Notes: generated by a model not told the origin, from the letters alone. A stretch of 64,000 nt of DNA from Escherichia coli (GCF_003018255.1 NZ_CP027440.1), one strand, 5' to 3'; counted from the stretch's first letter, positions 21,145 through 28,100 are shown. Translations and numbers: made by a program.

Positions 21145-21172
21145 TTACGAATAGGCATAAATATGGTATGAT
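21145..21172 (+). promoter_or_regulatory. Candidate sigma70 promoter of the cargo operon: -35 TTACGA, 16-bp spacer, extended -10 TGgTATGAT
   Basis: Hexamers at 21145-21150 and 21167-21172 with TG at 21164-21165, about 40 bp upstream of the ATG at 21211. Confidence 0.35.
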
Positions 21173-21210
21173 ATCCATTAGTATAATATCAATGGATAAA
21201 GGCTTCTGTT

Positions 21211-23157
21211 ATGAATTTTGAAGAGCTTATAAATGATATTGAAAGACTCTTAATTGGTAAAGAGTTGCAGTCTATAAATCCTAACACCCCCCCATTATTC
21301 CTTTTAAAAATAGACAGGGATATTGGTAAATATTACGTGTCTGTTTCTTTAAATGCTAAGCCTACGGCAAGGTCAATTTCTGAATTTGAATATATATTTA
21401 ATGACTTACTGCGTAAAGGGTTTTGTAATGTAGATCAGTCATTATATGGTAGCTCTTCAAGCCGTAATCACCCGGAAACAATATTTGCAAACTTGCCTTA
21501 TATTCAATTCTTTAAGTTCAAGAAAAAGAAACATATATTATTACGTAATAAAAATGTACACGAAGCAGGTCAACTTTCTGAATTACAAGGGGCTGAGTCT
21601 CGTGCTATAAGGAAGCAAATAGAAAATTATTTATCTCTAAATTTAAGTGAAATTGCAGAGCAGCAGTTAAAATCGTTGGAAAAAATGTTCGATGCGTATG
21701 ATGCTATTTTAAAAAAATACCCAGGGGATATCCCTGTTATAATGGCTGAGCAAGGCTTGTTGGGATTAAAAAACATTAGCGAAGTACTGATTAATTCTTA
21801 TGTTTCCTTGGATTTTGACAGTAGTGGCGATAAAATAAATAAATTAAGTAAATTTAAACAGGTGGAGTTATTTAAAGAAGATTTATCTTTAGAGGATTTA
21901 ATTGAGTCCCCTGAGATAAGTGGAGTTGATTCAGGTGATAAGAATATTGAGGAACAATCGGAATCAGAATTAGCACCTGAGCAAAAACGTACGGGCATTG
22001 CAAAAATGCTTATGACTACACCAGTTTTAACACTAATTTTTGATCGTGTAAGATATGATGAAATTGAGTTACAACCTGACTTTCAGAGAAAAGACCGAAT
22101 TTGGCCTGACGACAAAAAGTCAAAACTTATTGAATCAATATTAATGAAGCTTCCATTACCGGGGTTTTACTTTGGTGAAAAGCCAAACGGTAACTGGGTA
22201 GTTATTGATGGCCTTCAAAGAACGACTACAATTTGTGATTATATGAGTGGTCATTTCTCATTGAAAGGGCTCTCTATTTTAGAGCACTTAAATGGAAAGA
22301 GTTTTAAAGATCTTACTCGAACCGAGCAACGAGACATTAGAGAGTATCAAATTACGGCTTACCAAATAGAACTAAATGATGATAGTTCTGAATTGGTTGT
22401 AGAACTATTCCATAGAATAAACACTTATGGTGTAAAGTTAAGTAGTCAAGAAATAAGATCTGCACTTAATAAAGGCAATAGCGTAACCTTTTTACGTTAT
22501 TTAGCTTCATTAGAAACGTTCAAAAAAGCGACGCAATTTAAAGTAAAGCCGGACAGGCAAAAAGATATGGAGCTCTGTTTGTCCGCTCTTGCTTTTATGG
22601 TACTTGGTTATAATAACTATGGCCAACATTCGTATGATCATTTTTTATGTAGTGCAATGCAGAAGCTAAATAATTATCCATTAAGCATCATTAATAAAGA
22701 AGAGATTGATGCTGGAACAGCTCTTATTTCTCCTTCAAGTGAAGTCTTTTTAACTTTATATTCAAAATATAATCAGGCTTTAATCTTAGCAAATGAAGTT
22801 TTTGGTGAAATAGCTTTTTCAAAAGATCCGGAAAATAAAAAATCACCTATTAATAAACAACTCTTTGAGTTAATTGTTACTGTTTTCTCTGTATTTGACT
22901 CACATCAAAAGGAGATGATGTTAGCTAATGGTGATAAATTTATTGATAGCTTATACTTGGCTATTGAGGAGAATAGTAGTCGATATGCTAAGTGGGAGTC
23001 TGATACATATGAAAAGGACGATAGAGGATTTAGAGACTCAATATCTACTTCGACAGGTAAAAGAATATCTGTTGTATATCGATTTGATGCTTTTTTAAAT
23101 ATCCTTGGAAAAAGCACAGGAATAACTATTGATAGTAAATTATTACAGGGGGAGTGA
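21211..23157 (+). CDS. DUF262 / ParB-like (GmrSD N-terminal-type) domain protein with unknown N- and C-terminal domains
   Basis: 648 aa; central region has LQPDFQRKDRIW and DGLQR (variant of the DGQQR motif); no recognisable DUF1524/His-Me nuclease motif; AT-rich. Confidence 0.7.
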   Translation: MNFEELINDIERLLIGKELQSINPNTPPLFLLKIDRDIGKYYVSVSLNAKPTARSISEFEYIFNDLLRKGFCNVDQSLYGSSSSRNHPETIFANLPYIQFFKFKKKKHILLRNKNVHEAGQLSELQGAESRAIRKQIENYLSLNLSEIAEQQLKSLEKMFDAYDAILKKYPGDIPVIMAEQGLLGLKNISEVLINSYVSLDFDSSGDKINKLSKFKQVELFKEDLSLEDLIESPEISGVDSGDKNIEEQSESELAPEQKRTGIAKMLMTTPVLTLIFDRVRYDEIELQPDFQRKDRIWPDDKKSKLIESILMKLPLPGFYFGEKPNGNWVVIDGLQRTTTICDYMSGHFSLKGLSILEHLNGKSFKDLTRTEQRDIREYQITAYQIELNDDSSELVVELFHRINTYGVKLSSQEIRSALNKGNSVTFLRYLASLETFKKATQFKVKPDRQKDMELCLSALAFMVLGYNNYGQHSYDHFLCSAMQKLNNYPLSIINKEEIDAGTALISPSSEVFLTLYSKYNQALILANEVFGEIAFSKDPENKKSPINKQLFELIVTVFSVFDSHQKEMMLANGDKFIDSLYLAIEENSSRYAKWESDTYEKDDRGFRDSISTSTGKRISVVYRFDAFLNILGKSTGITIDSKLLQGE

Positions 23158-24305
23158 TGAAAAAAATTACGTCTTTAACATTAAAAAATTTCAAAGCTTA
23201 TAAAGAACAGAGTTTTGATTTTAGTAATTTAACTGTATTTTGCGGTAATAATTCTGTTGGTAAAAGTACGGCTATTCAAGCTATCGGTATGTTTCTCCAA
23301 TCAGATATGAATGGTAACAGTAATCTAAAAATAAATGGCGATTTAGTTCATGTCGGAGACTTCGACGATATTCATAATTTCAGTATGCGTGAGGATGATG
23401 TTTTATATTTAAAATATACATTTGAAGACGATACGGCTTGCTGGGGATATGGTATAGAAGAAGGGGATGCTAGAGAAGAACTTTCTAGGAAAAATGAATT
23501 ACCTTTTATTGGGTGTGATAAACAATTAAGAACTATAACAAACTCACTTAAAGATAACTTTTCATTCCAATATTTGGAAGCGGAGAGATTTGGTCCAAGA
23601 GATAATATTCCATTATCACAGCACAATTATCATGAAGGTTGGCTTGGGAAAAATGGGGAACATACAATTGAAGTTCTTGAGAGTTTGGTCACAAGGAGGC
23701 GTTTAAATTTTTCTGCTCAAGAGGATCCTAGGAAACATGAAGGAATTATTAATAATAATGTTTTCAATCATATTGAAGCATGGATGTCTGAGATTTCACC
23801 AGGGCATCGTATCTCACCTAGAATTGAGGCTAGGGCGAATGTTGCATTTAATGTCATAATCCCTTCACCTGGACAATTAACGAAACCTATTAACATAGGA
23901 TTTGGATTTAGTTATGCTCTTAGTATTGTCACTGCTTTAATGCTGGCATCAAAAAATGAACTCGTTATTATTGAAAATCCTGAGGCTCATCTACATCCAA
24001 GAGGTCAAAGCTATTTAGGACGACTTATTGCTTTATCAGCAAAAGCAGGGATCCAGGTTATTATTGAGACTCATAGTGATCATCTTCTTAATGGCATAAG
24101 AGTAATTGCACGCACAGATCCAACTTTTGATGCTTCTCTTTTTACTCTTTACTATATTTCACGAGAAAATGATGAAACATCTGTCGCCAAAATAAAAATA
24201 AATAATGAAGGGAAACTTTCCGAATGGCCTAGAGGGTTCTTTGATCAACAATCACAGGATATGTATACGATAATGACAGGCTCTTTTGATCATCCCAATA
24301 TTTAA
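23157..24305 (+). CDS. ABC/SMC-like AAA ATPase (AAA_15/AAA_21-type with DUF3696-like C-terminal region)
   Basis: ORF track 23154 (GTG); ATG at 23157 overlaps upstream TGA (TGATG) with GGGGAG RBS. Walker A GNNSVGKST; ENPEAHLHP Walker B/D-loop signature; ETHSDH H-loop. Confidence 0.75.
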   Translation: MKKITSLTLKNFKAYKEQSFDFSNLTVFCGNNSVGKSTAIQAIGMFLQSDMNGNSNLKINGDLVHVGDFDDIHNFSMREDDVLYLKYTFEDDTACWGYGIEEGDAREELSRKNELPFIGCDKQLRTITNSLKDNFSFQYLEAERFGPRDNIPLSQHNYHEGWLGKNGEHTIEVLESLVTRRRLNFSAQEDPRKHEGIINNNVFNHIEAWMSEISPGHRISPRIEARANVAFNVIIPSPGQLTKPINIGFGFSYALSIVTALMLASKNELVIIENPEAHLHPRGQSYLGRLIALSAKAGIQVIIETHSDHLLNGIRVIARTDPTFDASLFTLYYISRENDETSVAKIKINNEGKLSEWPRGFFDQQSQDMYTIMTGSFDHPNI

Positions 24306-24324
24306 TATTGTAGGGACATATAAA

Positions 24325-25209
24325 ATGAAAGCTGGCGTGTTTCTTATTCCTGAATGTTTTGATTTCAATACGGATATTTTATCTTTAAGTTCGGACCTTG
24401 ATCTGGCTTCGAAACTCGTAGTAAATACCCGTTCAGAATTTATTCACTTTATGAAATCTAGGGAGTTTGACTCGAAGATTGCGGAGTTATTGTTTTCCAC
24501 ATCACCTGATTATGCTGGAATGATGTCAAGATTTTACGATCAGCATCTATCAAAAGTTATAAAAATGGATATTAATGACGATGATATTATTGATATTATA
24601 AATAGCGAAGAACCTAAGTATTCTAACCGTTTGTTATCAATTTTTAATACGGGAAAAAAAGATTTAAATATTAAATATGTTAATAGATTAATTGACTCAG
24701 AAATTAAGATGAATGATTATTGTACTGATATCTTATTGAATTACCCAAGAAATGACGAGCAATACTGTGAGGATATACAGCAGGTTTATAAAAATTTAAT
24801 TTTCCTAGATTATCCAGAGGCAAAAGAATTTAAGACATTTAATAGTCTCAAGAGAATGACCGGTGGTTATGATAATTTCTTGAAGGCTATAACCAATTTT
24901 TTAAGTTATATGAATAAATTCGAATTCAAAACGAAAGATATGATGGATACATTGAAAATGATGGAGAGTGATTTAGGATCTCCAGTAACTCCGGAAGGAG
25001 GGGGGAAGAAAAGCCGATCTTTGAAAAGAGATTTTTTAATTAATGGAAAGCTATATACAAATGTAAACTGCGAATTCCATTTGAAATTAGAAAATGTTGA
25101 TGATACTAAGGGAAACAGAAAACACCATAAGAATAGAATTTATTTTGGATTTATTATGATAAGTGATAAAAACAGAGTGGCAATAGCTCATATTGGGGAA
25201 CACATTTGA
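24325..25209 (+). CDS. Hypothetical protein, third gene of the DUF262-ATPase operon
   Basis: ORF track 24286..25209; ATG at 24325 with AGGGA RBS follows the ATPase stop by 20 nt; 294 aa, no recognisable motif. Confidence 0.5.
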   Translation: MKAGVFLIPECFDFNTDILSLSSDLDLASKLVVNTRSEFIHFMKSREFDSKIAELLFSTSPDYAGMMSRFYDQHLSKVIKMDINDDDIIDIINSEEPKYSNRLLSIFNTGKKDLNIKYVNRLIDSEIKMNDYCTDILLNYPRNDEQYCEDIQQVYKNLIFLDYPEAKEFKTFNSLKRMTGGYDNFLKAITNFLSYMNKFEFKTKDMMDTLKMMESDLGSPVTPEGGGKKSRSLKRDFLINGKLYTNVNCEFHLKLENVDDTKGNRKHHKNRIYFGFIMISDKNRVAIAHIGEHI

Positions 25210-25219
25210 AATCATTTTA

Positions 25220-25248
25220 AACCTACTGATAGTATATATCAGTAGGTT
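25220..25248. terminator. Perfect palindromic hairpin between convergent operons (likely bidirectional terminator)
   Basis: AACCTACTGATAGTATATATCAGTAGGTT between stop of the plus-strand operon (25209) and stop of the minus-strand restriction gene (25271). Confidence 0.5.
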
Positions 25249-25270: not shown

Positions 25271-26344
25271 CTATATAACACAATCTTCCATAAAAGAATC
25301 TAGAAATAAATCATTTATTCCTTTAGGTTTTCTTCGGTCGCATAGAGAGTATAATTCTTCAACTGAAGAGTAAGGGAAGAATTTAGCTTTTAATTCAATG
25401 AATTGGGGCATGTTTGCAAATTCTATCACCTTTGCTCGATATTCATCAGGAGCAACGATAGTCCAACGGATATCTTGTAATCTCGGTGCATGATCATAGA
25501 ATTGTTTCATGCGAGTCAGACCACTTTTTATACCAGTACTGTGTTCAATCTCCATTACTGCTGGCATCATGCGGCCTTCCCTAAACCAAATGCAGTCTAT
25601 AAGACGAGCATCTTTAATCGCATCATTATACGATTGGAGTACTTGCTCATCAGATAATGAACTTATTACACCGTCCATTTGCGCTATAGCTTTACCATTA
25701 TATTGTAAGCTACGATCATTGGCTGCTACCCAAGTATCTAAACCTAAACAATAACCTATTTTTACTAAGGCAATTTGTATCTGAGCATGACGTCTTTTTT
25801 CTTCAATAGTCATGCCTTTAGTCGGTTTAATTGTCTCAATATCAACGCTTTGGTGAACAACATCGAAGCTCATTTCAGAGACAACAATATTAGTCTGGTG
25901 CTCAATTAACAAACCATTAGTATGTGGCATATCTGGCAGAAAAATCAGATGCTTATGTCCTGGTTTTATAGACTTTTGTGCATTCATGATTTCCAGTCTG
26001 GCTGGCCTACACCAATAGAACTCTGGAGTATGTGCGAGCAAGCTCTCCAATACCGAGCGGGTGTTGTAACTGGCACCGAAAACCCTTTCAACGTTGACAG
26101 GTCTGTTTTCTTCGAGTGCATTTGCAAGTCGCCAAAGCATTTGAGTCGAAATACTCTCTGTTTTAGCTGTTGCTTGAGTTTGACCTTTCTTAGGATCAAA
26201 TCTCTTTATTTCGATAGGACCTTCGGGATGTTGGATACGTACAATCTCAATCTTCCCGCTATTCCTATCGTTTATATAGTTAAACAGCGTATTTTTGGGT
26301 AAGCTCGAAATCGCCTGAACCAGATTCGATGCTGTTATCCTCAT
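25271..26344 (-). CDS. Putative Type II restriction endonuclease partnered with the adjacent C5-methyltransferase
   Basis: 357 aa ORF directly downstream of and overlapping the MTase 3' end (about 65 nt, ATG at 26344 with AGGA RBS); no family motif recognised; call is from gene context. Confidence 0.5.
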   Translation of the reverse strand: MRITASNLVQAISSLPKNTLFNYINDRNSGKIEIVRIQHPEGPIEIKRFDPKKGQTQATAKTESISTQMLWRLANALEENRPVNVERVFGASYNTRSVLESLLAHTPEFYWCRPARLEIMNAQKSIKPGHKHLIFLPDMPHTNGLLIEHQTNIVVSEMSFDVVHQSVDIETIKPTKGMTIEEKRRHAQIQIALVKIGYCLGLDTWVAANDRSLQYNGKAIAQMDGVISSLSDEQVLQSYNDAIKDARLIDCIWFREGRMMPAVMEIEHSTGIKSGLTRMKQFYDHAPRLQDIRWTIVAPDEYRAKVIEFANMPQFIELKAKFFPYSSVEELYSLCDRRKPKGINDLFLDSFMEDCVI

Positions 26345-27419
26345 TACTGTATCCTAAATGTTGCAAAATTGATTGGGCAATACCGAGCGCGGCGATATAG
26401 GGAACTCCGTTTCCGACTGTTTTAAACATATTCGACAAAGTCATATCCCCTGGTAGCTCAAAATTTTTTGGCAAAGACTGGATTGCCAATGCTTCAGCGA
26501 CCGTAATACGACGAGGTTTGTATGGGTGAAGGTGAACTTCATTATTACCATATGCTGCTGTTGGAGAGTATCTCCAGCGATGAAGCCTTTTATATGATTT
26601 TTTACTATCGTCGCCTTCTTCTACTGACTGGAATCTTGCTAAACCGGCTCGGGCCGTAAATACATGTTTAGCGTTTGGATGATTGGTAACATCGTTTTTC
26701 TCGAACCAGTATTCTATAGTAAGTTCTTCTGGAATACCTTGCGGGCATTCCATACTTGAGTCTTCTTCGTATGTGTTTGTTGTTGGCCAAGGGAACTGGA
26801 AAGCTTCCTTATTGGGGTATATTTGGCCACTCCATTCGAAGTTTTTGGCTAAAGACTTATCAAGAAAACCAACTAAAATAATCCTTTCTCGATCTTGAGG
26901 CGCACCGTATTCAATTGAATTAATCAATCTTTCATGCAGGATATATCCTACTGAAGCTAGTTCATTCTTAATTTGTTCGAAAAATTCTCTATGTTTAAGA
27001 GTCCGGTATAAGCCTTTAACGTTTTCAAAAAGGAAGAAATCAGGCATCATTTCAATTATCAGGTCAATGTAACTTTGTGATAATTTGCCATTTTCACCAT
27101 CTTTGCCTTTGTTTTTGCCAGCAACAGAAAAGTCAGGGCATGGTGGTCCGCCAATGAAGCCCACTAGGCGGTTTTCACCTTTCAGTGTTTTCATGCTATG
27201 CTTAATCACTGAATGCTCAATAGTTTCAATGCTTTCTTGGGCATACCCAAAGCGTGGCGGCTGTTTGCCAAGTTTTTTTCTTGAGTGTTTATACGCGTCC
27301 ATGAAGGGAGGATGGAATTCATTGACGAAAACCACCTCATACCCGGCATTTTCGAAGCCTAGGTCAAGAAAACCTGATCCTGAAAAGAATGAAAATATAG
27401 CGGGTTTCATTGTGGACAT
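26280..27419 (-). CDS. DNA cytosine-5 methyltransferase (Dcm-like)
   Basis: 379 aa; motif I FSGSGF, PC motif GGPPCPDFSVAGK, ENV motif ENVKGL. Confidence 0.85.
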   Translation of the reverse strand: MSTMKPAIFSFFSGSGFLDLGFENAGYEVVFVNEFHPPFMDAYKHSRKKLGKQPPRFGYAQESIETIEHSVIKHSMKTLKGENRLVGFIGGPPCPDFSVAGKNKGKDGENGKLSQSYIDLIIEMMPDFFLFENVKGLYRTLKHREFFEQIKNELASVGYILHERLINSIEYGAPQDRERIILVGFLDKSLAKNFEWSGQIYPNKEAFQFPWPTTNTYEEDSSMECPQGIPEELTIEYWFEKNDVTNHPNAKHVFTARAGLARFQSVEEGDDSKKSYKRLHRWRYSPTAAYGNNEVHLHPYKPRRITVAEALAIQSLPKNFELPGDMTLSNMFKTVGNGVPYIAALGIAQSILQHLGYSNEDNSIESGSGDFELTQKYAV

Positions 27420-27644
27420 TTTATACCTATCAAGTTAGCTTAAATTTTTACTAAATATCTCGCTGTACGATCCTACTATTTTACATGATAACTTGTTAAT
27501 TATCAATTTACTTTTTAATATATTAGCAAATAAGACCTGGCACTACTTCAGATTAGATAGTATTCATTGCTATAAAGTTAGGTGTTAATATATTGATTAA
27601 TAGTATAAGCTGCTATTATAGATTTAGAAACCGAAGGAACTTAT

Positions 27645-28100
27645 ATGCCTGATATGAGGTTATTTAAATCAAAAAACACCAAACTTGAGTTAAGAATCAG
27701 GAAGCCGTTGTTTGCCAGAGGATTTCGTTATCGATTGCATAATAGTGGTTTGCCTGGTAGACCAGATATGTATTTCCCTAAATACAATGCAGTCATTTTT
27801 ATCCATGGCTGTTTTTGGCATGGGCATGATAACGGCTGCCCTATATCTCACACTCCTAAAAATAATGAATCGTACTGGCAAAATAAAATCAATAAAAATC
27901 AAGAAAGAGATGTCAAAAATCAATATGTTCTTGCATCTAAAAACATCCGCGTTCTGATTATATGGGAGTGTGCAATAAAACTTAAAAGTATTGATTTTGT
28001 CGATTTTATTGATTACATCGATGAATGGCTTAGAGGTGGGGCAAATTCAACACAGATGAGCGCAAAGGAACCAATGCCGACTTTTGAGTTTCCGAAATGA
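27645..28100 (+). CDS. vsr: Very short patch repair endonuclease (Vsr)
   Basis: 151 aa; Vsr-like sequence incl. FIHGCFWHGH; divergent from the C5-MTase as is typical. Confidence 0.85.
   Translation: MPDMRLFKSKNTKLELRIRKPLFARGFRYRLHNSGLPGRPDMYFPKYNAVIFIHGCFWHGHDNGCPISHTPKNNESYWQNKINKNQERDVKNQYVLASKNIRVLIIWECAIKLKSIDFVDFIDYIDEWLRGGANSTQMSAKEPMPTFEFPK

Follow-up and report, generated by a model that had tools for sequence, protein, structure and literature searches.

A probable Type II Menshen (NsnABC) anti-phage operon in Escherichia coli ICE cargo, with a sensor domain that may be linked to an NmeDI-family C5 methyltransferase

Three co-directional, tightly packed and AT-rich genes lie at 21211-25209 of the window, by which is meant the whole stretch of 64,000 nucleotides of Escherichia coli DNA that was analysed, at the cargo end of an ICE. 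They raise the question of whether they form an uncharacterised anti-phage system, as a first-pass annotation had proposed, or a copy of a named one, and of how such a system would separate self from foreign DNA. The open reading frames are as that annotation described them, and RefSeq carries the same coding sequences, all on the + strand, under the generic product names DUF262 protein, DUF3696 protein and hypothetical protein: gene 1, nsnA (21211-23157; 648 aa), gene 2, nsnB (23157-24305; 382 aa from an ATG), and gene 3, nsnC (24325-25209; 294 aa from an ATG, or 307 aa from an alternative TTG start at 24286). Over 21-25 kb the GC content is only 0.32-0.33, compared with 0.56-0.63 upstream. 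The stop of nsnA and the start of nsnB overlap by 1 nt in a TGATG at 23155-23159, with GGGGGAG just 5' of it, and the gap between nsnB and nsnC is short, as claimed, but counts 19 nt and not 20. The ICE is of the PFGI-1 class, with the operon at its chromosome-proximal end, and RefSeq annotation and PADLOC agree that this cargo sits beside an R-M/Vsr module. A RelE/ParE-CopG pair is also carried by the ICE, according to RefSeq.

The flanking signals differ in how well they hold up. The non-coding region upstream of nsnA (21145..21210, + strand) contains, as read from the sequence, the promoter candidate proposed earlier at 21145, a weak one (TTACGA, 16 nt, TGgTATGAT) that matches the -35 hexamer at only 3/6 positions, together with a perfect TATAAT at 21182-21187 that lies at the center of an imperfect 13-nt palindrome (21172-21198) found by inverted-repeat search. 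Promoter-like sites were not above chance in a promoter scan (21 versus 21.5 ± 5.3 in shuffles), and the region is not conserved among relatives, so that the earlier claim of an own promoter is not sustained. On the 3' side, the palindrome reported previously is present at 25220..25248 (no strand assigned) as a 12-bp perfect repeat, AACCTACTGATA / TATCAGTAGGTT, with a 5-nt loop, positioned between the convergent nsnC and restriction endonuclease genes. It is among the terminator-like sites picked up (4 versus 1.8 ± 1.4 in shuffles), has no clear T-run 3' of it, and is a candidate bidirectional terminator.

The identity of the operon was settled by a PADLOC search. The NsnA model matches gene 1 at 1.7e-113 over residues 261-636, reaching position 383 of 385 of the profile, the NsnB model matches gene 2 over its full length (1.4e-104), and the NsnC model matches gene 3 (1.4e-83), the three matches spanning essentially the whole core of each protein. 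Because all three models match strongly, the trio is identified as Menshen, a system defined by Millman 2022 and dissected by Li et al., NAR 2025 (PMC12065111). The operon is a copy of a named system and not a new one, the very outcome that the first-pass annotation had listed as refuting its proposal, and the earlier view that the combination and order could not be matched to a named system does not stand. More specifically, we give a probability of roughly 0.88 to the reading that the operon is an anti-phage system of Menshen (NsnABC) Type II, which a PFGI-1-class ICE carries in the cargo at its chromosome-proximal end. The trio is also conserved as a unit, a check that the first-pass annotation had called for: in 27/27 loci examined, the genes run A-B-C and their junctions overlap or are short. 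These loci come from Enterobacterales, Vibrionaceae, Alteromonadales, Methylotenera and one alphaproteobacterial MAG, and within the clade NsnC has diverged more than the other two components.

The domain structure of NsnA accounts for both termini that had been considered unassignable. An N-terminal sensor domain (NsnA-N; aa 1-140, 21211..21630, + strand) was delimited with an AlphaFold model, hhalign and Foldseek against AFDB; the model is confident (pLDDT 90.3), and its predicted secondary-structure elements come in the order expected of a winged helix (wHTH; alpha1-beta1-alpha2-alpha3-beta2-beta3). Next come a helical hairpin (~aa 127-184) and an acidic, Ser-rich and poorly conserved linker (~aa 185-268), placed at 21631..22014 (+) by per-column conservation and the secondary structure of the model. 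Residues 1-260 are outside the PADLOC NsnA profile, and residues 1-~175 are conserved by the same per-column measure. The central ParB/DUF262 NTPase-like domain (22015..22500, +) is identified by the PADLOC NsnA match, by Pfam GmrSD_N at residues 287-418 (4.4e-24) and by the motifs QRKDRIW (292-298, motif I), DGLQR (333-337, motif II) and FHRIN (400-404, motif III). As GmrSD_N is the only Pfam match, with no DUF1524/HNH domain found, the earlier reading of a central DUF262 region without DUF1524 is correct. The C-terminus (22501..23157, +), covered by the PADLOC NsnA profile, is predicted to be the ParBDB helical domain, standing in place of a DUF1524 nuclease, as defined in the available text of PMC12065111. 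NsnA thus carries an extra globular domain N-terminal to DUF262, which is the mark of Type II. That text sorts such N-domains into 33 families, among which the one found here is possibly PS-wHTH5 with PB-BECR1.

NsnB (23157..24305, +) is an ABC/OLD-type ATPase with a C-terminal DUF3696 helix, as indicated by PADLOC, Pfam and motifs. Its Pfam matches are AAA_21 and AAA_15, in agreement with the earlier call, and in addition DUF3696. The features expected of a Menshen NsnB are all present: Walker A GNNSVGKS (30-37), the variant EN Walker B LVIIEN (269-274), GFG (248-250), the GxG that replaces SGG, the H-loop THS (305-307) and the DUF3696 tail. Every motif quoted in the first-pass annotation (FQRKDRIW, DGLQR, GNNSVGKS, ENPEAHLHP, ETHSDH) was found again.

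Gene 3 had been described as lacking any recognizable motif, which holds for Pfam, where it has no match. In the published Menshen framework it resolves into an N-terminal alpha/beta domain of PIN-like fold (inPIN-like; 24325..24819, +) and a C-terminal RelE/YafQ/YoeB-like (BECR) putative RNase domain (24862..25209, +). Such an arrangement, in which a PIN-like domain that lacks the catalytic tetrad precedes an effector (nuclease) domain at the C-terminus, is that of a Menshen NsnC. The canonical first-strand Asp is absent from the PIN-like domain, and its catalytic inactivity is only presumed, since several conserved acidic positions (E47, D49, D62, D72, E126) are retained. Invariant residues of the BECR domain are E250, H252, K254, R271, H289 and H293.

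Within the published Menshen framework, NsnA would be the sensor, with its N-terminal DNA-reader, linker, ParB/DUF262 NTPase-like and ParBDB DNA-binding domains, NsnB, the ABC-type ATPase with a DUF3696 tail, would be the transducer, and NsnC, with its inactive-PIN-like and RelE/YafQ-like (BECR) RNase domains, the effector. Detection of invading DNA by NsnA would drive the NsnB ATPase, which would license RNA cutting by NsnC and stop phage production, and possibly host growth. According to the available text of PMC12065111, these roles are bioinformatic predictions even in the Menshen prototype; anti-phage activity is given there against T2, T4, T6 and Fado, citing Millman 2022, the S. silvestris prototype being the only Menshen for which phage protection has been demonstrated.

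What the sensor might read is suggested by the neighboring genes. Downstream lie an NmeDI-family Type II restriction endonuclease (REase; 25271..26344, - strand, 357 aa; PADLOC REase_II 3.2e-120, full length), whose homologues bear PF27126 NmeDI_C or the name NmeDIP, a C5 cytosine methyltransferase (MTase; 26280..27419, -, 379 aa; PADLOC MTase_II 1.7e-161), whose gene overlaps that of the REase by 65 nt, and a Vsr very-short-patch repair endonuclease (27645..28100, +; PADLOC Vsr 1.5e-27, RefSeq annotation). Vsr is the usual companion of a C5-MTase, and the three genes at 25271-28100 are together predicted to encode an NmeDI-type Type II R-M system. NsnA-N aligns to residues 1-149 of this adjacent REase (hhalign 87.6%, E 3.5e-6, 123 columns; negative control 0.2%), a homology that is remote, with 22% identity, no BLASTP match and one profile-profile comparison as its basis; a stand-alone domain protein matches both HMMs. 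R.NmeDI cleaves DNA on either side of RCCGGY, some way from the site itself (PMC2095814), as would be expected if recognition and cleavage lay in different domains.

The domain also keeps company with one MTase family. A C5-MTase is adjacent in 24/27 Menshen loci bearing this NsnA-N domain and in all 18 independent Menshen loci of an unbiased species-level scan, where most of the MTases are 53-62% identical to that of the window; the usual layout is an array of four genes, MTase-NsnABC, that includes no restriction enzyme, and the MTases of these arrays are 54-62% identical to the window MTase. Outside Menshen, the domain heads McrB-type restriction proteins (representative search, family scans, Foldseek against AFDB) and occurs in stand-alone proteins of ~235 aa. 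As a fusion in proteins of 486-857 aa, a class which is McrB-type in the representative set, it directly follows the same MTase family in 6/6 loci; stand-alone forms are MTase-linked in 10/13. These associations suggest methylation-gated sensing by Menshen of this clade. We give about even odds to the more specific proposal that NsnA-N reads the sequence modified by the accompanying NmeDI-family C5-MTase, with RCCGGY, the site of NmeDI itself and not one read from the window enzymes, as the conceivable target. Unmethylated incoming DNA would then trigger Menshen and methylated host DNA would not, and in the window a single MTase would shield the host from R.NmeDI-like cleavage and from Menshen alike. 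The available text of PMC12065111 mentions neither the near-constant pairing of the N-domain with one MTase family nor the homology to R.NmeDI, and these may go beyond the literature; the pairing hints at how Menshen separates self from foreign DNA.

A methylation-independent Menshen, in which NsnA-N recognizes a phage protein or some other property of phage DNA, the MTase being merely an island neighbor that serves its own R-M system, is a possible, tentatively held alternative. The window MTase has an intact, full-length REase partner and Vsr, which would account for its presence without Menshen, and an Enterobacterales sub-clade (L006, L007 and E. coli IAI1) has the same N-domain with no MTase within 4-14 kb, which shows that the coupling is not obligate. 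Moreover, ~28% of all Menshen loci adjoin R-M/BREX genes as ordinary island neighbors, and the prototype defends although it is without the N-domain. Against this, 15/18 independent scan loci have the MTase gene immediately upstream of the Menshen genes and co-directional with them, and lack an NmeDI-type REase, so that Menshen is its only evident restriction partner there; the N-domain tracks the same MTase family in three other effector contexts across several phyla and is homologous to the non-catalytic half of an R-M enzyme.

It is unlikely that Menshen acts as a Type IV-like system, with NsnA-N, like the McrB N-domain, binding methylated or modified cytosines in foreign DNA. The domain does occupy the position of the McrB DNA-reader in McrB-type proteins, modified DNA is sensed by the DUF262 domains of GmrSD and SspE, and the prototype blocks T-even phages, whose cytosines are modified. 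However, a methylated-DNA reader in one operon with a conserved C5-MTase would attack host DNA, and the fusion genes overlap the MTase stop codon (4/6 loci), as would be expected of an R-M pair rather than of a Type IV enzyme.

Less likely still is that the module is mainly an addiction or stabilization cassette of the ICE, with the RelE-like NsnC restrained by NsnA and NsnB. The RelE/YafQ-like toxin fold of NsnC and the co-residence with the RelE/ParE-CopG pair would fit, but no small antitoxin-like gene is present, the trio is also found in chromosomal locations outside ICEs and in defence islands alongside BREX, Abi and R-M genes, and anti-phage activity of Menshen has been measured. Finally, the proposal of an uncharacterised system with only partial likeness to GmrSD, Septu, PARIS or Gabija, understandable from the generic RefSeq names, the lack of an NCBIfam model for NsnA or NsnC and the Pfam blank for gene 3, is hardly credible and, as a new, unnamed system, is ruled out by three Menshen-specific PADLOC matches over the whole core (E 1e-83 to 1e-113), the sub-cut-off AriA, GajA, PtuA and Old matches, and point-by-point agreement with published Type II Menshen; what stands of it is the anti-phage defence operon.

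Compared with Menshen as described in the available text of PMC12065111, the window operon shares the A-B-C order of Type II, an NsnA in which an additional, putatively DNA-binding N-domain precedes ParB/DUF262 and ParBDB, an NsnB (ABC ATPase) with GxG, DUF3696 and the EN form of Walker B, and an NsnC with inPIN-like and BECR RNase domains, and methylase and R-M genes adjoin the published loci and this one alike. It differs from the S. silvestris prototype, which is Type I without the N-domain, and its motif I is QRx4W, one residue longer than the QRxxxW of the description. The NmeDI system (R.NmeDI, M.NmeDI, V.NmeDI; Kwiatek and Piekarowicz 2007, PMC2095814) has the same gene set as that at 25271-28100; the N-terminal half of the window REase is remotely homologous to NsnA-N, whereas the PD-(D/E)xK catalytic half is absent from NsnA, and its output is DNA cleavage, while that of NsnA would pass through an ATPase and an RNase.

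In GmrSD, SspE and DndB, as in NsnA, a ParB/DUF262 domain bearing the nucleotide-binding motif DGxQR precedes a helical domain that binds DNA; NsnA differs in having no DUF1524/HNH nuclease and in working with an ATPase and an RNase effector that are proteins of their own. A GmrSD-type Type IV enzyme, which needs a DUF262-DUF1524 His-Me/HNH fusion, was rejected for gene 1 on its single Pfam match. PARIS (AriAB), Septu (PtuAB), Gabija (GajA) and OLD-family systems have an ATPase of the same broad ABC class as NsnB, predicted to control a bound nuclease toxin as is predicted for NsnB. Their matches to NsnB are confined largely to the P-loop and signature ends, far under curated cut-offs (NCBIfam PtuA 38.7 bits versus 500; PADLOC AriA and GajA partial, 1e-13 to 1e-30, versus 1e-104 for the NsnB model), and the window trio has no Toprim or HNH partner (PtuB HNH, AriB Toprim, or the GajA Toprim fusion with GajB) but different partner proteins, for which Septu, PARIS and Gabija were rejected. 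In McrBC-like Type II R-M systems such as LlaJI, a modular N-terminal DNA-reader sits on a motor protein encoded directly after the cognate C5-MTase, a position that is also taken by the NsnA-N domain; there a GTPase drives a McrC-type nuclease as the effector, in place of the ABC ATPase and RNase of Menshen.

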